Shown here: piece after piece, positions 89 to 57,247 of the stretch
Numbering within the stretch: position 1 is the first letter of the stretch
How the letters are laid out: every line of letters starts with the position of its first letter
IMG/VR virus record: IMGVR_UViG_3300030389_003077
Location: 1 to 61,182 of that record
DNA length: 61,182 nucleotides
Source: a virus
Lineage: Duplodnaviria > Caudoviricetes
Reading direction: 5' to 3' (one strand)
The notes under the pieces: generated by a model
Told to the model about the DNA's origin: nothing
What the model saw: only the letters and a program-made list of their open reading frames with translations
Databases searched by the model: none
Program-made: the position numbers and the translations under genes

Positions 89-961
89 GTCCCAGTTACC
101 ACCTTCGTCTACATACTTGTCAAAGAAACTTTCTAGGTCTGAGTTGTAATCCTTGATTTCATTCCTTGCGGCATCATCAAGTTGATAAACAAACTCTTCA
201 CCCTGATCGTTCATAGCGAATGATATACCATCTAAGTCATCAACCTCAGCACTCATAGTACCGATCCATTCATCTCTATCTTCTTGAGATATGGAATAAT
301 CTTCTGACTCTGTAGGCATAGCATACTCTTCTTTAACCTCGTTAAAGTAGTCTCTAGCAGCTTTAGCGTCCTTCATAAGTTGAACCTTACCAGCGTTCAT
401 TTGTCTCTCGTTATATTCCTCCTTGTCCATTTTATACGTTGTAGCCATATAATCATTTAACTCAGCTTCAGTTAAATTAGGATTATCTAATCTTAGATAC
501 TCCTTTAGGACTGCATCGTCAGACACGTTGGATAAATCAACAGTTTGAGTGTTTAGGTAATCTTGAACTGAACGACCAGTGTTTTTAACATACTCATTGA
601 TAACTCGAAGCTGATCGCTAGCAAAGTCATTGCTTTCTGCTTGTTCACTTGTCATGTTAAGATCATCAAATGATGTTAGGTCTCGCCCAAGCTTTTCGCT
701 AAGGTATTGTAAGACAACTTCGTCATCACTGATTTCCTCACCCTCTTGCTGTTGACTAACTTGAGATTCATCAACGTTAGTCTCCTCAGTATTTAAAGAA
801 CTCTCTTGTGTTAAATCCACAACGTTGGAAGGCTCCTGCGTTGTAGGTTGAGATTCAACTGTTTGGTTTTCATCACCAGTTAAATCTACAATATTTTGTT
901 GGTTTTGTTGTTGAACAACTTCTCCACCAAGTTTATTTAATAAGTCTTCTCTTATATCCAT
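1..961 (-). CDS. Putative capsid scaffolding protein, N-terminal part (continues across the origin to 60982; 357 aa total)
   Basis: ATG at 961 (MDIREDLLNKLGGEVV...), acidic Q/E/D-rich N-terminus, lies between portal and major capsid genes on the circle; absent from the ORF track because it is split. Confidence 0.75.
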   Translation of the reverse strand, partial: MDIREDLLNKLGGEVVQQQNQQNIVDLTGDENQTVESQPTTQEPSNVVDLTQESSLNTEETNVDESQVSQQQEGEEISDDEVVLQYLSEKLGRDLTSFDDLNMTSEQAESNDFASDQLRVINEYVKNTGRSVQDYLNTQTVDLSNVSDDAVLKEYLRLDNPNLTEAELNDYMATTYKMDKEEYNERQMNAGKVQLMKDAKAARDYFNEVKEEYAMPTESEDYSISQEDRDEWIGTMSAEVDDLDGISFAMNDQGEEFVYQLDDAARNEIKDYNSDLESFFDKYVDEGGNWDFDKLNTDMYILNNIDKIVRGVANQYRSKG

Positions 962-3421: not shown

Positions 3422-5499
3422 GCCTTAATTCTTTTACTATACATCCCTTTATTAGTATATCTTTTAACAAAAGGTGACGAAACTTTTATTTCTTTTTTAG
3501 GTTTTATATATTTTTGTGATGCTAGAAGTGCCAATGATGACGATATACTAGCATCGTATTTAGTTCTATTATCTATCTCAAATCTACTCCAATCATCTAG
3601 AAGCGTGTTAAAATAACATCTACCAATCTCTCCTGTATCTGAGTTATACCCTACATGATCGTATATATAACTTGCTATAGCTTCTGCCTGAGCATTAATA
3701 ACTGCAGCACCTGATCCAGGTATACCTTTGGTCTTTTGTTTACCTCTACTCCATTCTGTATGAGTCATATCGGGTCTATCCATTAAGTATTCATAATATC
3801 CTCTGTTTTCAAAATACTTTAGTATACCCACTTTATTATTCTCCACTAATATTTGACAACCATAAAACACGCACATCTTAATCATGTCTTCGTAAAATAT
3901 CTCCGCCTTAGGAGGTCTATTAATATACTCACACACAAACTGCATAGACGCATCGCTTGCCATACTAAACTTATGGAATACATGAGCAGCAGCATCAGAC
4001 CTTCTACCATCCGTAGTGGTATCATGATCATAAGGGTCACATCCTGCAACCAAAGCATCTGATTTACCAGGGAACTTCTTGCTATACCTAGAGGAGATAA
4101 CATTTTGATTATGTATCTCTGGAACCCAAGTAATTTCCCATTTACCTTTTTTATGAGGTATCCACATGACTTCGCTGTCCTGTATGCCATTCTTCCAAAC
4201 AAACTCACCCCTAGTTGTAGGGGTATTATTAACTTCGTTGTAATCCATCTGTTGATAGATTCTTTCGACATCAAATATACAACTTTGTGTGTCATTTCTA
4301 AATGCCTCCTCTACAGTAAAAGGAAACTGTCTTTTAAACTCAGACAATGCTGTGGTATCATTCTTTAAAGCATCCCTTCTGTTCTGTATATAATCTCTAG
4401 CTCCAATATCAATCATCATGTCATCAATACCCATAACAGGCTTATCTGGTGTATCTATAACACTGTAACCATACTCATCTATAAACCCCTCTAGATTATC
4501 ATAAGCAGGTATAAACAATTTATACAAACCACTTTTAGTCCTACCATTAAGATCTTTTTCAGACAAATCAGAATCGTAAAATATATCTTTAAACTCTGCA
4601 CCACCATCTTGTTGTTTGTTAGCAGTGGATCCCATCATACACTTTCCCACAACCTTTCTACCTAAAAGTAAACAAGTTTGAGTTACACCCCAGTTCTTCT
4701 TTATAGAGTTTTGCCCTGTCCATTTACCAGCTTCGTCATGTACTAAAAGGTTAAGCTTCATACCGTCATAACTATTATCAGCAGTATTCTTCCAATCTAT
4801 AATAGAATTAAGTGCTTCAGATTTTTCTATATGCTTTTGATTTTTAGTAATCTTTTTAGCAGGCTCTCTAAAAGCAAGCTCCACACGAGGATTACTAGAA
4901 CCATCTTGTATAGGCTGAAAAAAGAACGGGTAATTTCTATATATACGAACTACCTTGTCTGTAAACATTGTTTTAGCATCAGCACCTGTTTTGGATAACA
5001 AACCAAAGTTGCTGTCATACACTTGTGTAGCTTGATTTACTATCTCACTACTTGCCATGTATGAAAAACCACTACGCCTGTTTTTAAGAAAACACATACC
5101 GTATGAGTTTTTGTCTTTTTTACACGCTTCCCAAAAAATAAAGAACGTTCTATTAGCATCCCTGTAATCAGGATAACCAATATCTATTTTGCTCCACTGA
5201 AGAAACATATAATGAGACCCAGTGATATAAGTTGGAACACCATTATTGTAAAACCATAAACCCTCTTTTCTTCTTCTAAATTCTTCATCTATATAGTCTA
5301 CATAATCTGTAGCATTCTCCCTTGTCAATCCTTTAGGTAGATCTTGCCTGGTCCACCTCTGCTGCTTCTTAGGTAAGTTATGATATAATATATCTTTTTT
5401 ATATCTAGGTTTTTTAGGGATAACTATGTTTAAATTATCAAACTCTAGTACATCACCCTCACTACCATCTATTAAATATACTTTATCATTTCTTTGCAT
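3418..5499 (-). CDS. terL: Terminase large subunit
   Basis: Walker A-like KNRRSGFS, Walker B LLVHDEAGKW, GST coupling motif, RNase H-like GCDPYD nuclease; likely start ATG 5499. Confidence 0.92.
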   Translation of the reverse strand: MQRNDKVYLIDGSEGDVLEFDNLNIVIPKKPRYKKDILYHNLPKKQQRWTRQDLPKGLTRENATDYVDYIDEEFRRRKEGLWFYNNGVPTYITGSHYMFLQWSKIDIGYPDYRDANRTFFIFWEACKKDKNSYGMCFLKNRRSGFSYMASSEIVNQATQVYDSNFGLLSKTGADAKTMFTDKVVRIYRNYPFFFQPIQDGSSNPRVELAFREPAKKITKNQKHIEKSEALNSIIDWKNTADNSYDGMKLNLLVHDEAGKWTGQNSIKKNWGVTQTCLLLGRKVVGKCMMGSTANKQQDGGAEFKDIFYDSDLSEKDLNGRTKSGLYKLFIPAYDNLEGFIDEYGYSVIDTPDKPVMGIDDMMIDIGARDYIQNRRDALKNDTTALSEFKRQFPFTVEEAFRNDTQSCIFDVERIYQQMDYNEVNNTPTTRGEFVWKNGIQDSEVMWIPHKKGKWEITWVPEIHNQNVISSRYSKKFPGKSDALVAGCDPYDHDTTTDGRRSDAAAHVFHKFSMASDASMQFVCEYINRPPKAEIFYEDMIKMCVFYGCQILVENNKVGILKYFENRGYYEYLMDRPDMTHTEWSRGKQKTKGIPGSGAAVINAQAEAIASYIYDHVGYNSDTGEIGRCYFNTLLDDWSRFEIDNRTKYDASISSSLALLASQKYIKPKKEIKVSSPFVKRYTNKGMYSKRIKA

Positions 5500-9631: not shown

Positions 9632-10666
9632 TTAAAATATTACATAATTAATTCCTACGTTAAAGTTGTGCCAATCTCTATTCCAATATTTACTATATCT
9701 TCCTTCGATAAAGATACCTAAACTTTTGTTAAATCTATAACCGAATATTAAACCAGCAGAATAATCCATCCATTGACCATCATTATACTTGTGATAAGAG
9801 TATTTATTTTTAGTATCTAAATGGTAAGGCATAAGGTTTCCCCACGTGTGAAACCAAAAGTCTTTTGTAAAGTGGTAGTAGTCTAATCCTAACACAACAG
9901 AATATTCTAAAATACTAGATAAAGCACTTCTTTGCTTTTCTACATAATTATTTATAACTTGTGGTATCACAACCTCTTCCCAGACAGCTTGACTGTTTGC
10001 TACAACTTCTCCAGTTGGTGAAGAATATTCTCCATCTAGAGATATAGAGTAACCTTCTTGTATAGCTAAGTATGTATAATGAAGAGAACCATTATCTAAA
10101 ACCCAATCCTGAAGAGGATCAAATCCGTAAGGTTCGGCAAGTCTTTGCACTAAACCCCCGTTAAACGAAAGCTTGCCTTCCCTTACTTTTAACCTAAATC
10201 TTTCTGAAGCTTCAAAGTATTTTATATCTGCAAAACCATCTTCTAAATACTCTACCTTTCCAACCCACTTGTCTGCAACATATCTTACAAAGTGGTGTTG
10301 ATTAATGTAGTTTATTCCTAATCTTCTTAAAAAATCAGCCTCAAACAAATACTCAAAACCATCAACTCTACCAATAGTAGCAGCATCTGAGTAAGATCTT
10401 TCTGTACCATTATAAAAAGTGTTAGCTCTGTTCTCGTAGCCAAATCTTTTTATTTTTCTAATACCTATAGATAAATTATAATCAAAAGGAGTTTCTATTA
10501 CATCTTCTTGTAGTGTCCCAGATGTTATGGACCAAATTTGATTGTCACCTAGAGATGTACCACCATTTATAGCAGTGTAAATTGTAGAATATTTAAATAT
10601 ATTATGAAGACCTTGAGATAAACAGGTAGTTGATATAAATAACAATAAGAGTAATAGATTTCTCAT
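9632..10666 (-). CDS. Putative outer-membrane beta-barrel protein
   Basis: Signal peptide, aromatic amphipathic strands, C-terminal FNVGINYVIF (BAM-type signal ending in F). Confidence 0.65.
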   Translation of the reverse strand: MRNLLLLLLFISTTCLSQGLHNIFKYSTIYTAINGGTSLGDNQIWSITSGTLQEDVIETPFDYNLSIGIRKIKRFGYENRANTFYNGTERSYSDAATIGRVDGFEYLFEADFLRRLGINYINQHHFVRYVADKWVGKVEYLEDGFADIKYFEASERFRLKVREGKLSFNGGLVQRLAEPYGFDPLQDWVLDNGSLHYTYLAIQEGYSISLDGEYSSPTGEVVANSQAVWEEVVIPQVINNYVEKQRSALSSILEYSVVLGLDYYHFTKDFWFHTWGNLMPYHLDTKNKYSYHKYNDGQWMDYSAGLIFGYRFNKSLGIFIEGRYSKYWNRDWHNFNVGINYVIF

Positions 10667-12954
10667 TTTTTGACAAATTTTGCTTTATTAATGTTTCCAT
10701 TACAGCCTATGGTTATATTATAAATACCTGCAGGTAAATATGTAATATTTAATCTGTTTAACCCTGCTATTGTTTGTTTTCGTTTTACGTCTTTTACAAG
10801 CCTACCATTTATGTCATAAATCCTTATACTAACTTTAGTCTTTGTTAAAACATTTAAAAAGTTTTCAGTTGGATTTGGATATATAGCAATATCATTACTC
10901 CTCATTAGATCTCTAACATCTAACTCGCTATCTCCATAACAATGCCAGTATAACTGTTGACACTTTTCATCCCAATTTGTATTACAACAATAAGGATCTA
11001 CTAAAATAACCCAAGAATAACATGTGTCATTTAACCAGTATGGAATACCAGGACCATCAATACAACCTGCATCATATAGACAGTCATAGCTTTCTGTATT
11101 AGCAAACTCGTCATAATTATATGCTGTGTTATCCATACACCCTTCAACAACTTCTAAACAGTTATCGTTACTTGTATTAGCTAAAGAATCGTAATTAAAT
11201 GCTATAGAATCTAAGCAACCATATATAACTGGAACGCATGAAAAATCATTTGTATTTGCATCCTCATCGTAATTAAAAGCATCTGGATCGGTACATCCTA
11301 GTATAGTTGTAAAGCAACCTCCATTATCTACATTAGCATTAGGATCATAGTTGTCTGCTTCAGGATCCATGCAGCCAAAATATAAACAAGATTCGTCTGA
11401 TGTGTTGGCTAAAGAGTTATAATTCCAAGCCACCTCATCCATACATCCAACAATTACAGATATACAACCTTCATTGTCAACATTAGCTAGAGAGTCATAA
11501 TTAAAAGCTAACTCGTTTGTACAACCCTCAACTACAGGAATACAGTATCCATAATCTGTATTAGCTAAAGAGTCATAATTAAAAGCTTCAGGGTCCATAC
11601 ATCCCTCCACTACATCTATACAATAATCACCACAATATGGTAGAGCATTATATACATGCCAAAAAGGTGGCTCAAAGGGTTGTAGTGCACCTGCACCATT
11701 AAAAGCAAATGGATTAGATCCTCCTGATATTAGTAAATCTAAAGCATCGTTAAATAAAAAGAAAGAGTTATGCATAGTTTGAAACTCTAACTCTTCTTGT
11801 GGTACCTGTGGTGGTCCAATCTCAAAATATCTAATCTGAACAGACATATCTGTTCTTAAATAAATCCATTTAACTTCTTCATATATTCCAGGACCTAATG
11901 TGTACACACCAATTAAACTATCGCCTTGTGTTATAGCTAAGTGAGAGTCACCCCAACCGTCCCCTCCATTGTCATTAAGAACTAATTTATATTCACATAC
12001 AGGAACTATGTCATTTAATGTTGCTAAAGAATCGTAGTTATAAGCGTTCCAATCTATACAACCAACAATGTGTTCTGTTTCGCAACTACCATCATCTACT
12101 TGAGCAAAAGGATTAAACTCTATATAACTATTATCCATGCAGCCATATTCTATTGGAACATCACAGTGTTCTAGTTGTATTACTCCTGAGTAAGCTACAG
12201 ATCCAAAGTTCGGATCAGGAAGCTCCCATATAACATCAGGGCTACCACAAGGCTCTAAATCTCCAAGGATAACAAAACCACCATCGTCATTTTGATTAAT
12301 AAGAGATCCAGCCATACCATCACCATACGTATCACTTAGTATAAGTTCTACACCTGCTTCAGGTACACATAATTGATAAGGTATTGTTGTATTTGCTTGG
12401 TCGTAAGAATATTCTCCAGCTTGAACACTTTCAACTGGTTGACCAGTAGATATATCGGTAAGAATCCACCCTGTCTCTCCAGGATATTGGTCTAGTGTAA
12501 CTTCTAGTAGCATTTTAGCTTCACCATCGCTACACTCTATATTAGCACATCCTCCATTATCCACCTCAGCTAAAGGATTATAATTTATAGCTTCTGGATC
12601 AGTGCAACCTATTATTGGCATATCGCATGAACCATCATCTATGGTAGCTTCAGGAACAAAATTCCAAGCCATAAAATTCATGCAACCATATATAGTATCT
12701 AGCACAGGTAAAGGACAGTCGCCATTGTCAAAGTTAAACTCAGGGCAGTTAAAGTAAATATCGTTGCCATTCCAAGAGTAAGCACCATCATCACAGAACC
12801 CATCTCCTACCCAACCTAAAATACCAGATACGTCATTACCAATACAGTCTACAATACTATCTGGTATACTATCTGGGAGTAATGGTAGGGGTTGAGATTT
12901 AACATTTAGGGATATTAAAAATAATATCGGGATGATTTTTTTTAGCATTTCCAT
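10663..12954 (-). CDS. Cys-rich repeat surface protein with T9SS type A C-terminal sorting domain
   Basis: Signal peptide, LNR-like WVGDGFCDD..C..FNFDNGDC, 11 GC(M/T)DxxAxNY-type repeats, C-terminal IYPNP...IYDINGRLV...LPAGIY...KFVKK. Confidence 0.88.
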   Translation of the reverse strand: MEMLKKIIPILFLISLNVKSQPLPLLPDSIPDSIVDCIGNDVSGILGWVGDGFCDDGAYSWNGNDIYFNCPEFNFDNGDCPLPVLDTIYGCMNFMAWNFVPEATIDDGSCDMPIIGCTDPEAINYNPLAEVDNGGCANIECSDGEAKMLLEVTLDQYPGETGWILTDISTGQPVESVQAGEYSYDQANTTIPYQLCVPEAGVELILSDTYGDGMAGSLINQNDDGGFVILGDLEPCGSPDVIWELPDPNFGSVAYSGVIQLEHCDVPIEYGCMDNSYIEFNPFAQVDDGSCETEHIVGCIDWNAYNYDSLATLNDIVPVCEYKLVLNDNGGDGWGDSHLAITQGDSLIGVYTLGPGIYEEVKWIYLRTDMSVQIRYFEIGPPQVPQEELEFQTMHNSFFLFNDALDLLISGGSNPFAFNGAGALQPFEPPFWHVYNALPYCGDYCIDVVEGCMDPEAFNYDSLANTDYGYCIPVVEGCTNELAFNYDSLANVDNEGCISVIVGCMDEVAWNYNSLANTSDESCLYFGCMDPEADNYDPNANVDNGGCFTTILGCTDPDAFNYDEDANTNDFSCVPVIYGCLDSIAFNYDSLANTSNDNCLEVVEGCMDNTAYNYDEFANTESYDCLYDAGCIDGPGIPYWLNDTCYSWVILVDPYCCNTNWDEKCQQLYWHCYGDSELDVRDLMRSNDIAIYPNPTENFLNVLTKTKVSIRIYDINGRLVKDVKRKQTIAGLNRLNITYLPAGIYNITIGCNGNINKAKFVKK

Positions 12955-15425: not shown

Positions 15426-17579
15426 ATGAAATCACCAAAGAAAAATGGTATCGGTGAAGTAGTCACTGACTATGGTCGAAGGGTGATGAGAATTTTTAAG
15501 AAAGGGCTACTACAACGTAGCCTTTTTGATTTTTACGGGGATATTAAAGCTGATACTGTAAAAGTAAAAGAATCATCATCAGTGCCAAATACTCCAGTGG
15601 ATGGGGATGGTGGTGTAGTTTATGTTAAGTCTACTGACGGTAAGTTATACTTCAAGAGTAATGAAGTTTCAGAGGTAGAACTTAGCTCTCAAGGGACTAA
15701 CACAACATACTCTGTATCTTGCGTGGATGGAGATAATTCTGATGAAGAAAAGATTAGACTAACTGGTAGTGACTCTTCAACAGATGATGTAGTGTTAGAG
15801 GCTGGTACAGGTCTATCCATAGCTAGAGATGGTGATAAGATTACTTTTACTAATACAATAACAGACACAGATACTGTATTAACTACAGAACAAGTTCAAG
15901 ATATTGCAGGAGCATTAGTAGCAACAGGTGGCACTAAAACAGGTATCACAGTTACATACGATGACGTTAATAATAATATGGACTTCGTTGTTGGAACAGA
16001 TATAACTTTAACAACTGCAGCTCAACCTAATATAACATCTCTTGGAACTCTTACTTCTTTAAATGTTGATAATACAAATATAGATGGCTCAAGAATAACA
16101 CTTGTTGGTAGTACTGACGATGCCTGCGTTATAGACTGTAGTACACATGGTGCTACTACTATAACAACTACTGACGCTGCTGGAGCAGCAGCCGACTTAG
16201 GTTTTATTGCTGATGGAGCAATAACAGCTACATCAACTTCTTTTACAGCCACTACAGACGATTTTACCATAACTAGTGCAACAGCTAATAAACCAATAGT
16301 TTCAATAGTTAGCACTAACACAGGTAATAAACCACCATTACTAATATTTCAAAAAACTGATACAGGTGCTGCTCTTGATAGTCCAGGTATAATTGAGTTT
16401 AAAGCAGATGATGATGCTAACAATGAACACACTTATGCTAGTATACAATCTCAAATAGTTTCAGCAGCTAATAGTAGTGAAGCTGGTAAGCTAAGCATTG
16501 AAGTAGCAACAAGCGCTGGTAGTGGCACTAGTAATAAAAATGGTATTTTATTCACAGGTAGTGCAACTGCTAATGATGTTGATGTAACTATTGGAGCTGA
16601 AACAACATCACTAACAACTATATCTGGTAACCTTCAAGTTAATGGTAATGAAATAAAAGATGACGATGGCACAACTTGTTTAACATTTGATAGTAGTGGT
16701 AACGTTACAACAGGAGGTAATTTAACTTGTACAACATCTTCGTCATTAGCAGGATTAGCACTAACGTTAAATCATACATCTGCAACTGGTAGTCCTTTTA
16801 TAGCGTTTAGTCAAAATGGTACTAGAAGATCTTTTATTCAACATCACAATACAGATGATAAGTTTCGTTTTGCTTCTGAGTTTGGTGCTTTATCTTTAGA
16901 GGCAGCTTCTAGTGCTGGAACTGATTCTAATACAGCTTATCTAGTTATAGATCCAGGAGGAACGTTTACACTTGGAGCAGAAAACTCTGATGTTGTTCTT
17001 ACTACAGATGGTAATATGACTTTTAGAGTAGATGCTGATAATGACGAAACTAATGGATCTTTTATATTTCAACACAATGCTAGTACACAAATAGCATCAA
17101 TTACTGAAGATGGTACATTTAGTACTTCTGGAGCAGTTGTATCTACTTTAGGACATAAATACATTAAGACTGGTAATACAGATGGCACCTATCAAGGTGA
17201 CGTTGTATACTTTGGTGGCACAACATCTATGACAACTGGAAGAATATATTATTATAACTCAAGTGGAAACTGGATATTAGCAGACGCTGATTCTGCATCA
17301 ACTAGTAGCGGTTTATTAGGTGTAGCTTTAGGTGCAGCGTCAGATACTAATGGTGTTTTACTTAGAGGTATGGTAACCTTAAATCACGATCCAGGTGCAG
17401 TTGGAGATATATTATATTTAGCACCTGCTGGTGGAGTTCTAGCTAACGCTGGTATGGCTTCCTCTACAGCACCAAGTGGTAGTGGAGATATAATTAGAAT
17501 ACTTGGTTATTGTTTAGATGCTAGCAATGGTCAAATGTGGTTTAATCCTGATAGTACGTTTGTTGAGTATACAACTTAA
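15426..17579 (+). CDS. Tail fibre-like protein
   Basis: 717 aa, T/S/G/D-rich; AAQPNITSLGTLTSL fibre motif. Confidence 0.7.
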   Translation: MKSPKKNGIGEVVTDYGRRVMRIFKKGLLQRSLFDFYGDIKADTVKVKESSSVPNTPVDGDGGVVYVKSTDGKLYFKSNEVSEVELSSQGTNTTYSVSCVDGDNSDEEKIRLTGSDSSTDDVVLEAGTGLSIARDGDKITFTNTITDTDTVLTTEQVQDIAGALVATGGTKTGITVTYDDVNNNMDFVVGTDITLTTAAQPNITSLGTLTSLNVDNTNIDGSRITLVGSTDDACVIDCSTHGATTITTTDAAGAAADLGFIADGAITATSTSFTATTDDFTITSATANKPIVSIVSTNTGNKPPLLIFQKTDTGAALDSPGIIEFKADDDANNEHTYASIQSQIVSAANSSEAGKLSIEVATSAGSGTSNKNGILFTGSATANDVDVTIGAETTSLTTISGNLQVNGNEIKDDDGTTCLTFDSSGNVTTGGNLTCTTSSSLAGLALTLNHTSATGSPFIAFSQNGTRRSFIQHHNTDDKFRFASEFGALSLEAASSAGTDSNTAYLVIDPGGTFTLGAENSDVVLTTDGNMTFRVDADNDETNGSFIFQHNASTQIASITEDGTFSTSGAVVSTLGHKYIKTGNTDGTYQGDVVYFGGTTSMTTGRIYYYNSSGNWILADADSASTSSGLLGVALGAASDTNGVLLRGMVTLNHDPGAVGDILYLAPAGGVLANAGMASSTAPSGSGDIIRILGYCLDASNGQMWFNPDSTFVEYTT

Positions 17580-20415: not shown

Positions 20416-20839
20416 ATTGTGATTTTTTGCTAAGATAAAAAAATTCTGAGAAGTAAAAAAGGTTGGGGTTATATATGTATGCAGGGGTCCACGCGCACAT
20501 GCCGAAACGCAAATCCAAAAACGGGGTACCCAAACCAAAATCGTATACATAAAATACAAATGTCGTTTTCTATTTCCGTCCATGAGACTAACTATCTCTG
20601 ACTATCTACTATAAACCTACGGACTAATCGAAACATTCTCTTATATAGTACCTAAGCCACCTTAAAGGAGACGTATCTCAGTTACTATTGTGAGCAAGTA
20701 CTAGGGAGGGAGGGCATAATATCCCACATTATACCACTATTCCCCACACCCTACAATTATGTATCAAAAAAGTTTACACCTTGAACTCCTTAATACAAGT
20801 CCGATTAAAGAACTACTTGTGACATTTGTTGTAAAAAAA

Positions 20840-20872
20840 TTTGACACGTATTGTTTTTTATTCTTATCTTTG
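20840..20872 (+). promoter_or_regulatory. Consensus Bacteroidota promoter (-33 TTTG, -7 TATCTTTG)
   Basis: TTTG 20840-20843, 21-nt spacer, TATCTTTG 20865-20872. Confidence 0.8.
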
Positions 20873-20877
20873 TTCCC

Positions 20878-21689
20878 AACAATGATTCAATATCGTTGTC
20901 GTTCTTTACATACTGATTCAGACTCGCTATAACGCAGGAAGCCGATACAAGAGCAGTTGAGAATATCCTCTCAAGTATCAATAGGTTAGTAAGCAAGAGT
21001 CTGACTACCAAGTTCCCACGAGAGATAGCATCAAAGGGTTGTTGAGGTAGCACATCAGAATAGACCTTTAGCTTGATTGAGGGTCGTGAGTCTTAGTAAC
21101 GATACATAGCAGTAGCATTGCCTACCCAAGTGTATTAGAGCAATAATTCAATCAGCGTTTGTCAGTAGCGAATCAACTGAACGGAAACCACTGCCGACAA
21201 CTAGGTGGACTTGGATAGACCAATAGGCTATCATCAAGTTAGGTAAAGCACCATAGGGCAATCCAATAAGATTGCATACCGATTAATATGGGAAGTCTAT
21301 CAGAGGGGACACCGATGATATGTACTGAGTAATGTAGCAGTATGTTGATAGGTGTGAGAGTTAGTGACAGATACTCTGAAGTAAGATAGACACCACGCCA
21401 ATGGTTTGTTAGACAGACCAAGTAGGGCGTGTTTAATACTACTAAAAAACTAACTGATTTGATGGGACAATGCAAGGGCTACTCGCAGTAGCTTAATATG
21501 GTGGTGCTTGAGCCTACCTTGCAGAATCTCTTTACGGGAATGTACTGGTTGCCCAAATAAATATGATAGGGGCGTACATGTTTGAACGAGAGTAATCGGT
21601 TGTTAATCCTTATGTTCAGGTATGAGACGACTAACGCTGCAGATGAGCAGGAAGTTAACATAGTGGTTCGATTCCACTAATTCCCACTA
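20878..21689 (+). ncRNA. Large ornate structured ncRNA (~810 nt; GOLLD-like size/class, family unconfirmed)
   Basis: No credible ORF, raised GC, many local and long-range helices including crossing ones, AGUA/GAA loop-E motifs, tRNA-like 3' domain. Confidence 0.78.
20880..20915 (+). promoter_or_regulatory. boxB-like hairpin plus boxA-like antitermination element
   Basis: CAATGAT/ATCGTTG hairpin then GTTCTTTACATACTG, resembling rRNA-leader boxA. Confidence 0.55.
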
Positions 21690-21705
21690 ACTAAACAATT
21701 ACATT

Positions 21706-21873
21706 ATGTTGATTTTACCAATGTACACAGAGCAAGAAAGAGAAGAAATGAAGCCATATCTTGACCAATTAATCCAATGGTTAGATAAAAACGAACACTT
21801 AAAGGATACTGAAGAATACAAGCTTAAATATTCAGAAGCAGAAGGTGTTTATGAAACAATTTACGATTTGTAA
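21706..21873 (+). CDS. Early hypothetical protein (55 aa)
   Basis: MLILPMYTEQEREEMKPYLD...; first ORF after the ncRNA; below track cutoff. Confidence 0.6.
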   Translation: MLILPMYTEQEREEMKPYLDQLIQWLDKNEHLKDTEEYKLKYSEAEGVYETIYDL

Positions 21874-21909
21874 ACCCAAACAAATAGAAACTCTTAAAAT
21901 TATATAACA

Positions 21910-22107
21910 ATGGCAAAGAAAGAAGAAGACTACTTTTATAATGAGTATGGCGAAAGGGTAAGCTTCAATGATTCCCTAAAACCTTATCTTGAGAAAGCAA
22001 GAAAAAGACAACAAGAGGAAGACTCTTGGAATAGGTTTGTAAGAAAACAAGATGAGAAAGAAAAAAATAGAAAGCGTAAACTAAACAATACGAAGAATAA
22101 AGGTTAA
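21910..22107 (+). CDS. Early hypothetical protein
   Basis: 65 aa, A-rich leader; stop codon lies inside hammerhead stem I. Confidence 0.65.
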   Translation: MAKKEEDYFYNEYGERVSFNDSLKPYLEKARKRQQEEDSWNRFVRKQDEKEKNRKRKLNNTKNKG

Positions 22108-22157
22108 CTGATGAGGATTTAATATCCGAAACCTTGTCTTAGGGCAAGGTCTTAACC
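22102..22157 (+). ncRNA. Type I hammerhead ribozyme
   Basis: GGTTAA-CTGATGA-GGAT/ATCC-GAAA-CCTTGTC/GGCAAGG-TC-TTAACC: complete core, three stems, GUC cleavage triplet (cut after 22151). Confidence 0.92.
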
Positions 22158-22171
22158 AAACATTAGAAATT

Positions 22172-22432
22172 ATGAAATCAAAAAACAAATTAGAGTTACT
22201 AAAAGAATTAATAGAGGCTACTGAAGTTTATTCTAAAAAAGTAGAAAGTTTAATTAATACAAAAGAACAAGTCGGTAGTGAGTTTGATGACATCATCTTA
22301 CAACCAAATCAAGACAGACGTTATCAAACCAGCATGAGAATAGAGTTAATGTTTTTACTTAAAAGATTAAAAGTTCAAAATTGGGATTTCATTAATAGTC
22401 AGATGATGATTGAAATAGAAAATGCTAAATAA
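22172..22432 (+). CDS. Early hypothetical protein
   Basis: TAGAAATTATG leader. Confidence 0.7.
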   Translation: MKSKNKLELLKELIEATEVYSKKVESLINTKEQVGSEFDDIILQPNQDRRYQTSMRIELMFLLKRLKVQNWDFINSQMMIEIENAK

Positions 22433-22445
22433 AAAAATAGAAACT

Positions 22446-22823
22446 ATGGAAACTATGTTTAAACAAGAGAAACAACTAAGAGTACTAGCCAAGTGGCTAA
22501 AAGAATCAGATGACGGCATAGATGCTTATACTGACGGAGATATGGAAAGAGCAGTTAAGTATGGTGTACAAGAATGTATGCATAAAATAGGCGACTACCT
22601 TGAAGAAATATTAGATATGAATGATGAACAATTAATTAAAGAGATGGAAACAACTAACAAACAATCAAAATATATCGTTTGGGTAGGTGGTATACCTAAT
22701 CACTTTGACAACTTATTAGATGCCCAAGTACATAAAAAAGAATGGGAAGATGAGGGCTATGATGATGTAGTAATTGAAGCAATATTTAAAGTTAATGGTA
22801 ACGAACATCATTTATTCTGTTAA
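22446..22823 (+). CDS. Early hypothetical protein
   Basis: Start moved to TAGAAACTATG at 22446; C-terminal YIVWVGG...GYDDV motif. Confidence 0.7.
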   Translation: METMFKQEKQLRVLAKWLKESDDGIDAYTDGDMERAVKYGVQECMHKIGDYLEEILDMNDEQLIKEMETTNKQSKYIVWVGGIPNHFDNLLDAQVHKKEWEDEGYDDVVIEAIFKVNGNEHHLFC

Positions 22824-22848
22824 ACTCTAACATTTTACACTAGAAACT

Positions 22849-23055
22849 ATGGAAATAAAATTTGAAAAGTACAGACAAAACTTAACACAAGTAGGTAACA
22901 ACATTTATAGCTACGATACAAGAGTAGCTAGTATAAATGGTAAACAATTAATCCAATATAAAAATCCACTTAGAATAAATGGTCGTTGGTCAACTACAAC
23001 ACAAAAGCATATCAATTATGTGGCTAACTACTACAACCTTAACCTTAAAAAATAG
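22849..23055 (+). CDS. Early hypothetical protein
   Basis: TAGAAACTATG leader; YSYDTRVA...WSTTTQKHIN motif. Confidence 0.75.
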   Translation: MEIKFEKYRQNLTQVGNNIYSYDTRVASINGKQLIQYKNPLRINGRWSTTTQKHINYVANYYNLNLKK

Positions 23056-23060
23056 AAACT

Positions 23061-23315
23061 ATGAATTATAAAAAACAAATAGCAGAAGAAATGTACAACG
23101 AGATATGGGATATATTCAATAATTATGGTGGGTATGACTACAACGATACCATGTGGTGTCAAGCACAAGGCTCATCTGACGCTTTTGAACAAACAATAGA
23201 AGATGGAAATTGGGAGGCGTTAGTTAGAGAGTACGAGTCTGTCTTAAAATACATGAGACACATTAAGAAGATATTAATATTACAAAATAGTATACCACCA
23301 CAAGTATATTGCTAA
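23061..23315 (+). CDS. Early hypothetical protein
   Basis: TAGAAACTATG leader. Confidence 0.7.
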   Translation: MNYKKQIAEEMYNEIWDIFNNYGGYDYNDTMWCQAQGSSDAFEQTIEDGNWEALVREYESVLKYMRHIKKILILQNSIPPQVYC

Positions 23316-23340
23316 ACATTAACCTAAACAATTAGAAACT

Positions 23341-23553
23341 ATGGGAAGTTACACTACAATAGGCTACTTGCAATCTAAGATGATTCGTATGCCTTTAAAC
23401 CTTAATCAAACTTGGAATGAAGATATAAACAACTGCCAAACATCTCAAGAGATTATGGACTACATTAAATTATTTGGTACTAAAGATGAGTATTGGAGAC
23501 TACTCCATGCTATTGGTACAATGGAAATACTAAACTTAGAACTAAACAAATAG
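23341..23553 (+). CDS. Early hypothetical protein
   Basis: TAGAAACTATG leader. Confidence 0.7.
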   Translation: MGSYTTIGYLQSKMIRMPLNLNQTWNEDINNCQTSQEIMDYIKLFGTKDEYWRLLHAIGTMEILNLELNK

Positions 23554-23828
23554 AAACTATGGAAAAAATTACAAACTTTCAAAAATTAAATAGATTATCT
23601 TGCAAATTCGACATGTATTGCAATGCTACTTTAGACGATACTTGTAACAATCTTTTCAGAAAAGAATATACTGAGATAATGTTAATACGAGATACTAAGT
23701 CAAATGAATTAATCCCAAATACAAATCCATCAGATGAACAAGTGAAACGTATGCAAGATATAAACAAAGTATGTAAAGCAATAGTTCAACAAGTTAAATA
23801 CAATCTAAACAAATAGAAACTATGGAAA
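23542..23828 (+). repeat. 24-bp direct repeat CTAAACAAATAGAAACTATGGAAA (23542-23565, 23805-23828)
   Basis: Two identical copies, each spanning a stop codon, leader and start codon. Confidence 0.9.
23559..23816 (+). CDS. Early hypothetical protein
   Basis: Start moved to 23559 (leader motif); flanked by a 24-bp direct repeat. Confidence 0.7.
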   Translation: MEKITNFQKLNRLSCKFDMYCNATLDDTCNNLFRKEYTEIMLIRDTKSNELIPNTNPSDEQVKRMQDINKVCKAIVQQVKYNLNK

Positions 23829-24088
23829 TAAACGAAGAAAAATTATTTAGCGTAATGGAAGATATTACAAGAGAGCAGTACGATAACCTTTCAGATGGCG
23901 AGACATTAAAACTATCTGAGGAAGTCTCAATGTACAAATACGACCACAACTATGAAACTATGAGTGTGTATGATGATGATGAAGATGATGCACCAACACA
24001 TTGTGTAATACAATACAATGGAGAGGATATATTCGTAGTGCAAACTAACGAAGATTCACTTGAGTTTACAGATATATACGGACTATAA
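23822..24088 (+). CDS. Early acidic hypothetical protein
   Basis: Leader motif; very D/E-rich (YDDDEDD). Confidence 0.7.
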   Translation: MEINEEKLFSVMEDITREQYDNLSDGETLKLSEEVSMYKYDHNYETMSVYDDDEDDAPTHCVIQYNGEDIFVVQTNEDSLEFTDIYGL

Positions 24089-24099
24089 AAACTAAAACT

Positions 24100-24309
24100 A
24101 TGTTAGTAGAATTATCGAATGATGAAATTAGAGGGATTCTTTATGCTATTGAGAAATCAGAAGCAAAAGAATTAATTAGTAAACTAAACCTTTGCAACAA
24201 TTCTGTATCAAAAGGATTATATAGTGCAGAGTATAAGTTAAGAAAACTAAGAACAAAATTAAACAAAGAAGAATATCACGCTAAAAACAATCCAAACTAT
24301 ATTTTATAA
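24100..24309 (+). CDS. Early hypothetical protein
   Basis: TAAAACTATG leader. Confidence 0.65.
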   Translation: MLVELSNDEIRGILYAIEKSEAKELISKLNLCNNSVSKGLYSAEYKLRKLRTKLNKEEYHAKNNPNYIL

Positions 24310-24313
24310 AACT

Positions 24314-24466
24314 ATGAGACAACAACCATTAGATAATCAAACAGAAATTCTACTACCTCACTACGAGGTGGTAGAGATTCCACTATCATATATCAAATCA
24401 GAATTGCTGGTAGATTTTTGTGGGTACGAAACACTATTAGAAAACTTTTTAACTAACTTAAACTAA
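24314..24466 (+). CDS. Early hypothetical protein (50 aa)
   Basis: TAAAACTATG leader; MRQQPLDNQTEILL...; below track cutoff. Confidence 0.55.
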   Translation: MRQQPLDNQTEILLPHYEVVEIPLSYIKSELLVDFCGYETLLENFLTNLN

Positions 24467-24478
24467 ACTAATAAAATT

Positions 24479-24847
24479 ATGGACTATCAAAAAGAAGCAC
24501 ACAATAAACTTGTTCAACTTTACCAAGACAAAGCCATAGAATGCGACAGACTTGAATCAGAAATGAAGCAATTGAAGAACAAGTCAAGAAATATGAGTGT
24601 TGAATTGAAATTGTACAAAGCACTTGCAACTGATGGTGCAATCTATGTCAATTCATGGTCAATTGATTGTGATGGTGTTGAATCTTATTCTTCAGGTATT
24701 TACAATTCAATTGAAGAATATTATCAAGGAGAAAAAGAATTTGCTGAATCTGTTGAAGGCTCTTGTTCTTGGGAAATTGTTTCAAAAGAAGATGCAAGAC
24801 CACAAGAAGAATGTGGTACTTACGGACAAGGGTGGGGAATAAAATAA
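24479..24847 (+). CDS. Early hypothetical protein
   Basis: TAAAATTATG leader; coiled coil plus WSIDCDG domain. Confidence 0.7.
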   Translation: MDYQKEAHNKLVQLYQDKAIECDRLESEMKQLKNKSRNMSVELKLYKALATDGAIYVNSWSIDCDGVESYSSGIYNSIEEYYQGEKEFAESVEGSCSWEIVSKEDARPQEECGTYGQGWGIK

Positions 24848-27525: not shown

Positions 27526-27799
27526 ACTTATAGCAGAATTTATGCAGAAAGGCTCAGAAGGATTTGGATTGTATGACTATAATGGTAAGCATTATAAATT
27601 ATATGAACTTAAATTCCACACCTCTTGGGATTGGATAATGCCAGTAGTCCAAAAGATAGGCGATGAATATCTTAACACACCATTTGATGAGACATACTCA
27701 CACCTTACAGAGCAGTATGAAAACATTTGGACATTGGAAGATACATATAACGCAGTAGTAGAATTTATTAAAGACCAAAACACTATAAAAAACAATTAG
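27509..27799 (+). CDS. NKLIAEFM/SWDW family paralog 3
   Basis: Same three motifs, different intervening segments. Confidence 0.8.
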   Translation: MEKTNKLIAEFMQKGSEGFGLYDYNGKHYKLYELKFHTSWDWIMPVVQKIGDEYLNTPFDETYSHLTEQYENIWTLEDTYNAVVEFIKDQNTIKNN

Positions 27800-27804
27800 A
27801 AATT

Positions 27805-28188
27805 ATGGGATATAGAAGTGAAGTGTACATAGCAGTACCAAAAAAAGCAGAAAAAGAAATGGACGCAGTAATGAATAATCATAACTTATTTAAAAAAGAC
27901 ATGCATGGCGATTCACCATTTGAAAAGTACGATCACAAGCAAACTTACACGCAGTTCAATGCTGATGGTAAGTGGTTTGAAAAATCAAGGGAAATTGTAA
28001 TATACGAAGGTAATTATCTTAAGTGGTACGAGGAGTATGATGATGTTCAAGGAATAACAAGTATAGTAGAGGAGTACGAGCCAAGTGGTGCGTGTATGGT
28101 ATGTGTTGGAGAAGATAGTGCAGTACATTCAGATATGGGAGAATATCATGAAGTGTTTAATGTTTACACTACAGTAGAATTAACTTAA
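27805..28188 (+). CDS. Hypothetical phage protein (MGYRSEV type)
   Basis: TAGAAATTATG leader; MGYRSEV...KWY...VGED motifs. Confidence 0.75.
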   Translation: MGYRSEVYIAVPKKAEKEMDAVMNNHNLFKKDMHGDSPFEKYDHKQTYTQFNADGKWFEKSREIVIYEGNYLKWYEEYDDVQGITSIVEEYEPSGACMVCVGEDSAVHSDMGEYHEVFNVYTTVELT

Positions 28189-31361: not shown

Positions 31362-31856
31362 ATGAAGTATAGAATTTCAGATACAGATATTATAGATCTT
31401 CAAAAGGTAGACTTTATCGAAGTTGATGGTAGATCTATAAATTTTCACATAAATTCAAACGTACATCAATCTGTTTACAATAACGATTTAGAGTCTACAT
31501 ACGTATTCAACAACATAGTAAGTCACTTTGATGTAGTGGATCTAAGATTTCAATCTAAAGAGAAGAAGGTGACCATTAATAGTAGAAAAGAGAAAGGCTT
31601 TGAGATGTTTTGGAATCTTTACGACAAGAGAGTAGATAAGATTAAGGCTAAGAAGTCTTGGATGAATCTAACTTTAAATGAGATGGGAGATGCCATAAAA
31701 GCTGTTAAGACTTATGTTGAATCTACTCCAGACAAGCAGTACAGAAGAATGCCAGCAACTTGGATTAATAATAAAAGCTGGAAGAACGATATTAAATTAA
31801 ATAACAAGAAAACTAACCGATACGTTAAACCTCAATACATCCAAGATGAAAGATAA
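31362..31856 (+). CDS. Putative replication initiator/helicase-loader protein
   Basis: FEMFWNLYDKR..KAKKSW...PATWINNKSW motif of phage replisome-organiser C-termini; directly precedes dnaB. Confidence 0.65.
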   Translation: MKYRISDTDIIDLQKVDFIEVDGRSINFHINSNVHQSVYNNDLESTYVFNNIVSHFDVVDLRFQSKEKKVTINSRKEKGFEMFWNLYDKRVDKIKAKKSWMNLTLNEMGDAIKAVKTYVESTPDKQYRRMPATWINNKSWKNDIKLNNKKTNRYVKPQYIQDER

Positions 31857-33168
31857 TATTGACATGGAAAATAGACTTATCGGTAAGATAATGTCCAATC
31901 CTAAAGATTACTATGATTGTCATAGTCTAATATCAGAAAATATATTTAAGGATCCTTTAAATAAAAGGATATACAAGGTTATTTCTAGTAAGTTGGATTC
32001 AGGATTGAAGGCTGATATGATGGACATATCTTCAAGTATTAAAGATCCTTTGGTTGATCTTAGGGTTGCTGAATGTATTAGCTCCGATCATTATGGATAC
32101 ATCACAAAGAAAATTGTTCTTTACTTGTCTCAAGAAGAAAAGAAGGGTAAGTTAAAAAGTCTTGTCGAGAGTACGTCTAAAAAGATAGATAGTGGGGACG
32201 ATCTATTTAACATATTAGAGTTTGTAGAAGAACAATTAAAGAGTATATCTGAAGTTAGAGGTAGTGATATACCTGACATAAAAAAGCAGTTAAAAAAGCT
32301 ACATGATGATATTAACAGAAGAATTAATTCTGAAGATATGATTGGTATAGCTACTGGGTTTCAATCTGTAGATAAGTTTACTGGTGGTTGGCAAGAGACC
32401 GATCTAATAGTTATAGGTGGTGCATCATCTATGGGTAAGACATCTCTTGGGTTAGCATTCTCTTATAATTGTGCAAAGATGGACATACCTACTGCTATAT
32501 TCTCTTACGAGATGGGAGATACTCAGCTTTTACAAAGGTTAGTTTCTTTAGAGAGTGAGGTAAATAATAGGTATATAATGAAGGGGACCATAGAGAATAA
32601 CGAGCTTATGAGGATTCATAAAGCTATTGGTAAGCTAGAAAATACAACTCTTTTTATAGACGAATGTAAGAACTCTTCACTCAAATACCTTTTAAATAAA
32701 ATACGTCAGTATGTAATAACTAAGGATGTCAAGTTCTTCTTGGTAGACTACCTTCAGTTAGTTAAAGCAACTGGGTCCTCAAGAGAACAAGAGGTAGCTG
32801 TTGTGGCTCGTGAACTTAAGAACATAGCTAAAGAACTTAACGTTACTGTTGTAGCTTTGTCACAACTTAGTAGAGGTGTTGAACGTAGAGATGGTTGTAG
32901 ACCTACCTTATCTGATCTTCGTGAGAGTGGAGAGATAGAGCAGGCTTCTGATATTGTTATGCTTGTATATAGACCAGAATACTATGGCATTATGAATGAT
33001 GATAGTGGAAGTTCTACCCAAGGTCTTGTTGACCTTATATTTGCTAAAGGTAGAAACATAGGTACTGGAACTTTGCCTTTACACTTTAAAAAGGAGTATA
33101 CTAAGTTTATTGATCCCCAGGATTATACTGAGAAGTTTACAACTGCAGAACCTTCAGAATCATTTTAG
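31846..33168 (+). CDS. dnaB: Replicative DNA helicase DnaB
   Basis: GGASSMGKTS, FSYEM, VDYLQL, ALSQLSR, LSDLRESGEIEQASD. Confidence 0.96.
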   Translation: MKDNIDMENRLIGKIMSNPKDYYDCHSLISENIFKDPLNKRIYKVISSKLDSGLKADMMDISSSIKDPLVDLRVAECISSDHYGYITKKIVLYLSQEEKKGKLKSLVESTSKKIDSGDDLFNILEFVEEQLKSISEVRGSDIPDIKKQLKKLHDDINRRINSEDMIGIATGFQSVDKFTGGWQETDLIVIGGASSMGKTSLGLAFSYNCAKMDIPTAIFSYEMGDTQLLQRLVSLESEVNNRYIMKGTIENNELMRIHKAIGKLENTTLFIDECKNSSLKYLLNKIRQYVITKDVKFFLVDYLQLVKATGSSREQEVAVVARELKNIAKELNVTVVALSQLSRGVERRDGCRPTLSDLRESGEIEQASDIVMLVYRPEYYGIMNDDSGSSTQGLVDLIFAKGRNIGTGTLPLHFKKEYTKFIDPQDYTEKFTTAEPSESF

Positions 33169-56065: not shown

Positions 56066-57247
56066 TTACATTTTAGGAGATTGCTTGAATGCTTTTCTAG
56101 ATACAGCCATTGCTGTTTCTTTATTAAAACTCATCATTCTAGCTCTTGCTAATCTTTTCTCGTTATAGTAGGCTCTTTTAGCCATTTGTTTTTCGTTGGC
56201 AGGAATGCCACGTTTTCTTTGTACATACTTATAATATATATAACAACGTAAAGCCTCTTCACAAAACTTATGTACTTTAGGTCCATCACCAACAACACCT
56301 AGTTGTAATAACTCCTGATTAGTTAACACTATTTTTTCTACTGTGCTAGCACCTACAGTTTGACTTTTATTCGTATCAAAACTACTATTATTAAGAGCTA
56401 AAGGCACTGCAGTTAAGTCACTGTATGCTAAAGTTACAAATCTGGATTTTGTGGCTTGAGAAGCTTTTATTTTAGTATCAATAGGAGATATTCTAAGATC
56501 AGGATAACCCTCGTTTATTAAAGTAGAAAACTTTTCTGCTATTGTTCCTGAATTATCATTTGTTTCAAACTGTATTTGTAAGTTAGTAGTTGGAGTGTCA
56601 GTTATAAAAGTAAACGTATGAAACTCTGTTGAGCTACTTGATTTTGGTATTTTTAACGTACAATTAGTATCAATTTGATCTGACTCGTCTCCATCAGCTC
56701 CATTAAAAGTAAACCTTATTACATGATTTTTAGCCTGAACATTGCTTATACCGTCAGATATATACTCCATAAATACGGTTTTACCAGCAATATCTGAAGA
56801 GAAGTTTATAGTGTTATCATTTCTATTTAGCATGTAATATCCTAAATTATTTTTTCCTCCACCCACGCCATACTTTCTACCCATATCAACATGATAATAA
56901 GGGTTGTTCTCGTCATAAGGATCGTCATTTACTTGTGCTGTTACTGTAGCATCTAAAGCTAAGTCAGACTTATAACCTAAAGGGTGAAACTCATCATCAT
57001 CACCCCTGTAACCAATACGCAAAAGTTTAACATAGTCATTTGGTAAAGTAACCTGAAGTGTTGTTGAATCTACAGTCATTTCAGTTGTTTTAACCTCTTG
57101 TTCTGCGTCAAACTTAAGCTCTCTTAATCCTTGTAGAGCTAATAATCTTAATTGATAAATTTGTGCGTCTTTGTCGTAAGACGTATCATCTATCATTAAC
57201 TGAAAGTCATTTACGACTTCATCTATACTTGTATAATCTATTGCCAT
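56066..57247 (-). CDS. Tail ring/adaptor protein
   Basis: LPNDYVKL, EYISDG, VHKFCEEAL, RLARARM motifs. Confidence 0.65.
   Translation of the reverse strand: MAIDYTSIDEVVNDFQLMIDDTSYDKDAQIYQLRLLALQGLRELKFDAEQEVKTTEMTVDSTTLQVTLPNDYVKLLRIGYRGDDDEFHPLGYKSDLALDATVTAQVNDDPYDENNPYYHVDMGRKYGVGGGKNNLGYYMLNRNDNTINFSSDIAGKTVFMEYISDGISNVQAKNHVIRFTFNGADGDESDQIDTNCTLKIPKSSSSTEFHTFTFITDTPTTNLQIQFETNDNSGTIAEKFSTLINEGYPDLRISPIDTKIKASQATKSRFVTLAYSDLTAVPLALNNSSFDTNKSQTVGASTVEKIVLTNQELLQLGVVGDGPKVHKFCEEALRCYIYYKYVQRKRGIPANEKQMAKRAYYNEKRLARARMMSFNKETAMAVSRKAFKQSPKM

Follow-up and report, generated by a model that had tools for sequence, protein, structure and literature searches.

The stretch of DNA analysed here (the window) takes in all 61,182 bases of an IMG/VR virus record (IMGVR_UViG_3300030389_003077; Caudoviricetes), which is estimated to be 97% complete, and carries between two small open reading frames (ORFs) a 56-nt element with the anatomy of a type I hammerhead ribozyme. 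The element lies within a run of small plus-strand ORFs leading to replication genes, among them a DnaB-like helicase (31846-33168), and from this gene layout we infer that the genes around it are early genes. The junction is composed of the following features:

21910-22107 (+): upstream small ORF of 65 amino acids (aa), without Pfam or PHROG family
22101 (+): conserved unpaired A, immediately 5' of stem I
22102-22157 (+): hammerhead ribozyme, type I, with every invariant core base, three helices and a GUC site
22102-22107 (+): stem I 5' strand GGTTAA, read directly and recovered in the fold and in the match to covariance model R1 (see below)
22108-22114 (+): core strand CUGAUGA (C3-A9; CTGATGA in DNA), read directly
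22115-22127 (+): stem II hairpin GGAT/ATCC with loop TTAAT, closed by the pair G10.1-C11.1
22128-22131 (+): core strand GAAA (G12, A13, A14, A15.1), read directly
22132-22149 (+): stem III hairpin of 18 nt, with 7 pairs and loop TTAG in the predicted fold; A15.1-U16.1 makes an eighth pair
22150-22151 (+): U16.1 (T22150) and C17 (C22151), the GUC cleavage site
22152-22157 (+): stem I 3' strand TTAACC, which pairs with GGTTAA and would start the downstream RNA after cleavage
22152-22171 (+): post-cleavage leader of 20 nt, A-rich and without Shine-Dalgarno sequence; 22158-22159 are conserved A's
22172-22432 (+): downstream ORF of 86 aa, without Pfam or PHROG family

According to the published definition, a hammerhead core consists of C3 U4 G5 A6 N7 G8 A9, G12 A13 A14, A15.1, U16.1 and H17, and neither a core mutation nor a mispair adjoining the core is allowed (PMC3088659). 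The window site agrees with this consensus core base for base, and all core-adjacent pairs are present, namely A22107-T22152 in stem I, G22115-C22127 in stem II, and A22131-T22150 with C22132-G22149 in stem III. The order of the strands (stem I 5', CUGAUGA, hairpin II, GAAA, hairpin III, UC, stem I 3') is that of the type I topology, with stem I open and stems II and III closed by loops, and the predicted scissile bond lies between 22151 and 22152. When the 56-mer is folded, its minimum free energy structure and its centroid both coincide with the three-way junction (-16.9 kcal/mol, z -3.07), and 2 of 200 shuffles were as good; the junction was kept when the 181-nt context 22040-22220 was folded, and the flanks were unstructured. 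Moreover, a type I descriptor requiring the core, the A15.1-U16.1 pair, H17 and minimal stems found this one site only when both strands of the window were scanned, and on 300 dinucleotide-preserving shuffles of the whole window it returned 1 loose match and none with stems as long as the real ones. The initial annotation had described an intact core with GAAA, GUC and three stems as a canonical hammerhead, and sequence and fold agree with it. The same can be said of the upstream stop codon placed within stem I (TAA, 22105-22107, the final three bases of the 5' strand) and of the 20-nt leader left on gene 22172 by the predicted cut at C22151, which the coordinates 22152-22171 confirm. We regard the window site as almost certainly a genuine hammerhead.

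The site belongs to a large family. In a distant relative reached via the 133-aa ORF 22422-22823 (L004), a type I hammerhead was found with the same stem I and the same loop, in which stem II is fully compensated (GTCT/AGAT versus GGAT/ATCC in the window) and which is likewise followed by a 20-nt leader. A search pattern with 21 specified bases, in which five stem I bases were combined with the core, GAAA and the stem I 3' strand, hit IMG/VR contigs in at least 120 stretches, a single one of which could hold up to four matches; the reversed control pattern gave 14 matches. Since this pattern leaves stems II and III free, the formation of both stems directly at the core can serve as a strict test whose comparison between viral and cellular sequences is not circular. 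Of the 123 distinct matches in viral loci, 83 passed it, which is a lower bound because copies with one extra base after A9 are dropped; in a much larger collection of cellular genomes only 3 of 119 distinct pattern matches did so among the matches listed, and all three of these genuine copies lie in metagenome-assembled genomes of Bacteroidota. The family counts given below (117, 119 and 123 members) were likewise drawn among the matches listed of the forward pattern. A single locus holds up to 6 copies.

An alignment (A1) was made of 83 members of 46-58 nt, comprising 82 of the 117 distinct descriptor matches and the window site. In this alignment C3, U4, G5, A6, G8, A9 and GAAA are invariant and N7 varies freely. 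Changes on both sides were seen in 11 of the 15 modelled pairs, including 3 of 4 in stem II and 4 of 5 in stem III; many of the rows are related, however, and these counts overstate the independence of the changes. All cells are paired (100%, compared with 24-41% once partners are shifted by 1-3 columns), a percentage that holds by construction, as the rows were chosen by a descriptor demanding pairing. Loop II most often reads U-N-R-R-U (family loop counts, read by eye), and the cleavage triplet is GTC in 83 of 123 members and always N-U-H. Most stem I sequences (96 of 117 distinct matches) read GGTTAA, five of these six bases being set by the search pattern. Since additional copies at the same loci, which had not been selected by the pattern, show altered pairs on both strands (GATTAA/TTAATC, GGTCTA/TAGATC, GTTATA/TATAAC, GGTTGA/TTAACC), as does the copy of Flavobacterium phage elemoE described below (GGCAAA/TTTGTC), these comparisons indicate that stem I is a real helix with an unusually constrained sequence. 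At positions left free by the pattern, stem I is preceded by an A in 92% of 119 members, and an A follows it as the first base (+1) in 92% and as the second (+2) in 79%. In the same 119 members, G accounts for only 2-8% over leader positions +2 to +8, counted from stem I, and does not occur at +1. The window carries these typical flanking A's as A22101, A22158 and A22159.

A covariance model (R1) was built from A1. It scores the window site with 66.2 bits over its full length (E 3e-15), a value typical of the family, and the window thus shows all the marks of the subclass, namely an R1 match, an A at -1 and at +1, and a short A-rich leader to the ATG. On the 123 loci R1 gave 82 + 94 matches, and 82 of this total are its own training sequences; two matches reach only about 25 bits and one is cut by the end of its locus. 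Two cultured phages carry one copy each: Cellulophaga phage phi18:3 (NC_021794.1) at 21904-21958 (-), between gp050 and gp049, and Flavobacterium phage vB_FspP_elemoE_6-9C (NC_055854.1) at 16304-16361 (-); Cellulophaga phage phi38:1 and Maribacter phage Panino gave no R1 match. The predicted cuts lie on the minus strand between 21910 and 21909 in phi18:3 and between 16310 and 16309 in elemoE. Both copies are unannotated. In elemoE (L132, NC_055854.1 16289-16396) the annotated coding sequence gp65 (+, 35 aa) overlies the minus-strand hammerhead and is probably a spurious gene call; a 21-codon unannotated ORF of the same phage ends at the first base of the ribozyme.

Some variation within the family was noted in passing. 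In a sub-group including L011, L025, L049, L086, L109 and L123, A9 and stem II are separated by an additional U (CTGATGA-T-GG...); these copies still reach 38-60 bits with R1. The hairpin GTCCGTT-CAAACGGAC, or a close variant of it, forms the tip of stem III in hammerheads of L026 and L063, and also occurs free at about 2582-2600 of L004, upstream of a type III hammerhead. L004 holds one type III and two type I hammerheads (2621-2671, 3727-3788 and 4904-4967, all +), all of them at gene junctions on the coding strand within a 5-kb stretch, so that to judge from these sequences different hammerhead topologies are used side by side in this phage.

The position of the ribozyme relative to genes is very regular. 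Positional counts were made on 123 distinct descriptor matches including their flanks. In 115 of them, an ORF of 40 codons or more that begins with ATG is found within the next 150 nt. Cleavage site and ATG are separated by 16-31 nt in 101 of the 123 members and by 18-24 nt in 85 (mode 22; window 20). For 102/123 an upstream ORF with 50 codons or more terminates close by, and in 69 of these 102 its stop codon lies inside the ribozyme (+1 to +20). The stop ends at +6 of stem I, which is the arrangement of the window, in 30/102, at +10 (the UGA of the core) in 17/102, at +1 in 15/102 and directly before the stem in 10/102. A stop inside the ribozyme and a short leader to the ATG are therefore anatomical features of the window that both recur across the large phage hammerhead family. 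Where a locus has several copies, successive ones share one strand without exception and are spaced 126-1672 nt from each other; exactly one ORF lies between them in 23 of 47 pairs, with a median coding coverage of 0.91.

The downstream ORF 22172-22432 is a real gene, since besides the window's own protein five others, with 70-98% identity, were found at E<=0.001 (6 proteins in all). The protein was not found in viral contigs, and in metagenome contigs it was recovered at three loci. One of them is a near-identical phage in an independent data set with an identical ribozyme, and the other two are orthologs with 73% aa identity that lack the ribozyme. In one of these (L268, about 1928-1945, +), a G6/C6 hairpin precedes the 73% ortholog at the junction held by the hammerhead in the window and is followed by the same leader, which suggests, as far as sequences can tell, that interchangeable boundary elements occupy this junction.

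The leader itself is not peculiar to the ribozyme. Early genes of the window share the leader form ...AAACAAaTAGAAACTATGgaaa (families D1, D5-D8), which ends in ...TAGAAACTATGGAAA and has no Shine-Dalgarno sequence. It was found at the following sites:

21873-21910, 22420-22456, 22820-22855, 23032-23067 (+): shared early-gene leader
23312-23347, 23530-23565, 23793-23828, 27776-27811 (+): shared early-gene leader, further sites

This shared leader is probably the standard translation-initiation region of the phage. As the 20 nt after the cleavage site fit the leader of these ribozyme-less early genes, the ribozyme looks like a module of about 50 nt that has been placed after a stop codon and ahead of a spacer which otherwise conforms to the standard intergenic type. 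The motif TTAACCAAA was not enriched in the window (34 matches versus 40.8 expected).

From these data we consider the self-processing of a polycistronic early transcript the probable role of the ribozyme, and cleavage in vivo very probable. The ribozyme would be encoded in the sense strand of the early transcript. As soon as the 3' strand of stem I has been transcribed (past 22157), the junction would fold and the RNA would cut itself between C22151 and U22152. In hammerhead chemistry, cutting 3' of C17 yields an upstream RNA that ends in a 2',3'-cyclic phosphate and a downstream RNA that begins with a 5'-OH. The upstream RNA, composed of the leader region and two small ORFs, would thus end in the folded ribozyme with a 2',3'-cyclic phosphate, which might act as a protective 3' end. 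The short AU-rich stem I of 6 bp would dissociate, and the downstream mRNA would be freed with a 5'-OH and an unstructured, A-rich leader of 20 nt corresponding to the standard initiation region. Bacteroidetes are described as lacking Shine-Dalgarno sequences and as tuning initiation by mRNA structure (PMC6847099), and therefore freeing the leader positions -20 to -15 from stem I should favour initiation. In this way the ribozyme might serve as a self-contained punctuation between a stop codon and a start region, and make the downstream early genes independent of the upstream RNA in their stability and translation, with no host RNase involved. The end chemistry at this site and the effects on stability and translation are inferred, while the anatomy of sequence and fold, the family membership, the covariation and the positional regularities are observed.

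Besides the relatedness of the aligned rows, several results weigh against this interpretation. The Rfam hammerhead models, proposed as a check in the initial annotation, were run on the window at the gathering score and, permissively (E<=10), on 22050-22210, and none of them matched; the permissive scan returned just a meaningless match to a small nucleolar RNA. RF00163 (Hammerhead_1, 45 positions, gathering score 34 bits), searched alone, gave nothing at E<=10, and 13 related loci with dozens of family ribozymes gave no Rfam hammerhead match at the gathering score. Since the biochemical definition of PMC3088659 is matched base for base, we do not hold this failure against the identity of the element, and treat it as reflecting the limits of the library models for this subclass. 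In the window R1 found only one good copy (22102-22157), and the two closest relatives (the records behind L002 and L003, 95% and 79% complete) gave no R1 matches; at the DNA level they also lack the segment 21400-22438, in which the ribozyme lies. The absence from both closest relatives means that the ribozyme is dispensable in this phage lineage; what it contributes may be slight, or confined to this cassette. Stem I is open and only 6 bp long, and for the tertiary contact with loop II that natural hammerheads need at low Mg2+ there are candidates alone, namely the unpaired A's at -1, +1 and +2 and the U-rich loop II. Finally, the listed sequencing runs with this DNA include no RNA.

Two minor matches from these searches are recorded here. 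A second R1 match in the window (56096-56143, -; 22.9 bits, E 0.0013) has stems I and III, GAAA and UGAUGA, and lies within the last 80 nt of the ORF 56066-57247, about 39 nt before the next ATG. It was rejected as a hammerhead, with A in place of C3 and the 10.1-11.1 pair missing, and is either a decayed copy or a chance match. The single Rfam match in the 13 related loci was a DUF805b RNA at 250-282 (-) of L082 (38.9 bits, above the gathering score), a phage contig which also bears several hammerheads.

Other explanations of the element have to be set against self-processing. A chance resemblance without function, with which the missing Rfam match would be in keeping, is effectively refuted by the comparative data: none of the 300 shuffles gave a comparable site, the R1 match has an E value of 3e-15, an identical copy lies in an independent metagenome contig, and hundreds of homologous copies show compensatory changes. 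The element might also act by its structure only, as a 3'-end stabiliser or a pause or termination signal, with self-cleavage slow or irrelevant. The plain GC hairpin in place of the ribozyme at the orthologous junction of L268 and a stem I without demonstrable tertiary-contact loop would fit this idea; however, a hairpin is a cheaper route to structure, and the catalytic core is invariant across A1 while the helices vary, which is the signature of selection for catalysis and not merely for a stable fold. We therefore consider a purely structural role very improbable. Only slightly less improbable is that the shared stem I permits re-ligation, circular RNAs or the exchange of cassettes, the ribozyme being a mobile module that travels with small genes. 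The sequence GGTTAA in 96/117 matches points in this direction, though it mostly reflects the search pattern, and so do the unselected extra copies, most of which are near GGTTAA (GATTAA 6), the free variation of stems II and III, the up to 6 copies per locus that each flank single small ORFs, and the patchy occurrence among close relatives, where the ribozyme lies in an unshared segment; spliced or circular products were also raised as a possibility in PMC3088659. On the other hand, the window holds a single copy and hence no fragment between two ribozymes, the prophage clusters gave neither spliced nor circular products according to the same paper (PMC3088659), and a 6-bp AU-rich stem I can be expected to favour product release over ligation. 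Moreover, stop codons, a tertiary contact or shared ancestry are simpler causes of the conservation of stem I.

The initial annotation had suggested that cleavage may be modulated by ribosomes terminating in stem I. Regulation would then be the chief purpose of the element. A terminating ribosome would melt stem I and cover the core, and translation of the upstream gene would thereby set cleavage and the release of the downstream mRNA. The stop codon at 22105-22107 within stem I, the stops within the ribozyme in 69/102 family members, and the under-use of the frame without stop in stem I and core (15/102 versus about 34 expected) are compatible with such gating. Yet two of the three frames already meet a TAA or TGA, and often a TAG, in the fixed sequence of stem I and core. 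Abutting ORFs therefore end there automatically, and compaction explains the pattern without regulation. In addition, 33/102 upstream ORFs stop before the ribozyme, and in phi18:3 the stop lies 7 nt before stem I. The compatibility of the suggestion with the positions of the stops thus stands, but tight gene packing explains them equally well, and we consider gating by ribosomes unlikely. The same low likelihood applies to a portable 'stop-cut-start' cassette for Bacteroidota phages, in which the ribosome gates folding and cleavage makes the leader that initiates the next gene. If true, translating one early gene would time the release and translation of the next, and the near-universal stem I, both strands of which are parts of the palindrome GGUUAACC, would let the cut ends of different junctions pair.

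The self-processing reading draws on known systems. Intergenic hammerheads of phages, type I included, have been known since 2011, and the statement of the initial annotation to this effect is found in print (PMC3088659). Prophage hammerheads flank genes and cleave in vitro and in Escherichia coli, and have been proposed to process long phage transcripts into gene-length mRNAs (PMC3088659). The window family resembles the type I hammerheads of Perreault et al. 2011 in the core, the three-helix junction and the open stem I, and in its intergenic location in phages with several copies flanking single genes or short blocks (PMC3088659). The window site and its relatives differ from the 2011 set and RF00163 in being unmatched by any Rfam hammerhead model, in the nearly fixed stem I GGUUAA/UUAACC with unpaired A's on both sides, in the 4-bp stem II with a U-rich loop of 5 nt, and in the 18-24 nt to the next ATG. 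Furthermore, the 2011 examples lie mostly near prophage integrases (PMC3088659), whereas the window family occurs in non-integrated phage contigs, with only 3/119 cellular pattern matches being genuine among the matches listed.

A closer parallel in position is the HHphage hammerhead of the haloviruses HF1 and HF2, lytic double-stranded DNA viruses, in which it lies in the early region 13 nt before a start codon, and the 5' end of a transcript has been mapped within 3 nt of its cleavage site (PMC3088659). Like the window ribozyme, it is an early-region hammerhead a few nt upstream of a start codon. HHphage has, however, an atypical core insertion and a tie to high salt, and precedes the first ORF of its transcript (PMC3088659), whereas the core of the window ribozyme is of the consensus form, and two ORFs precede it, the third beginning 20 nt beyond its cleavage site. 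Type I hammerheads have also been described in untranslated and intergenic regions of fungal and plant RNA viruses, where cleavage gives a shorter RNA expressing the downstream ORF (PMC13725137). Like the window ribozyme, they fill a short intergenic region and cut just upstream of the start of an ORF, in one case by 7 nt; they belong to RNA genomes with eukaryotic hosts and reportedly do without typical loop-loop contacts (PMC13725137). The window ribozyme, in contrast, is DNA-encoded, in a phage of bacteria without Shine-Dalgarno sequences.

The early mRNA of coliphages such as T7 carries RNase III hairpins between genes, at which the polycistronic transcript is cut, leaving protective 3' structures. 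The window ribozyme would work alike, which is an analogy and not a shared family: it would need no host enzyme, and would leave a 5'-OH and a 2',3'-cyclic phosphate instead of a 5'-phosphate and a 3'-OH.

The description of the subclass may be new. Its marks are a stem I of nearly constant sequence with A's at its flanks, about 20 nt of leader, stop codons that fall within the ribozyme, a host range of flavobacterial phages and invisibility to Rfam. Literature searches for this subclass and for hammerheads of flavobacterial phages returned just the general description of 2011 and later reviews, and Dataset S1 of PMC3088659 may list the subclass. A better knowledge of these elements is of interest, since the role of hammerheads in phages has been an open question since 2011 and the regularity and abundance of the family make function easy to test, directly so in its cultured carriers, Cellulophaga phage phi18:3 and Flavobacterium phage elemoE. 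The family is also useful for annotation: standard Rfam annotation misses its copies, and one deposited genome carries a probably spurious coding sequence over a ribozyme. Moreover, polycistronic expression in Bacteroidota may profit from the ribozyme as a compact natural insulator.

Regarding the phage itself, a capsid-like structural protein (59520-60944, -) matches phages of Flavobacterium (68 records), Cellulophaga (15) and Maribacter (1) and otherwise only one unclassified Caudoviricetes record, with identities of 25-37%. The ORF 10663-12954 (-), of 763 aa, ends in a Por_Secre_tail domain (type IX secretion sorting), which is a hint of a Bacteroidota host, and the DNA is present in marine metagenomes. 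The phage is a marine, podovirus-like one, and because of these matches, the domain and the marine occurrence its host is probably a member of the Flavobacteriaceae. The three genuine cellular copies of the ribozyme, all from Bacteroidota, point to the same kind of host. A megablast search of 20500-24500 against phage records gave no match.

As to the transcript, the best promoter-like site upstream of the ribozyme is the following:

20841-20873 (+): promoter-like site TTGACA-18-TATCTT overlapping TATCTTTG, consensus match only

We take TATCTTTG to resemble the -7 motif of Bacteroidetes. The ribozyme lies about 1.25 kb downstream of this site, and on the plus strand from 20841 to 24500 no terminator-like sites were predicted, again judged by consensus matches only. 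The number of promoter-like sites in the region was not above that in shuffles, and 20841-20873 is a possible start of the ribozyme-bearing transcript. The noncoding RNA that the initial annotation had placed in the upstream part of this transcript (about 20880-21700) was not substantiated: the region 20700-21800 gave no Rfam match at E<=1 and no transfer or transfer-messenger RNA, and its fold was unremarkable (z -1.5). What is found at 20880-21700 (+) is about 800 nt without convincing ORF, GC-richer than the downstream genes, which may be a large structured RNA or a leader. This ORF-poor stretch is closed by a T-arm-like GTGGTTCGATTCCAC at about 21662-21676, and the segment 20502-21399, which spans its first ~520 nt, is 84% identical to positions 548-1444 of L003.

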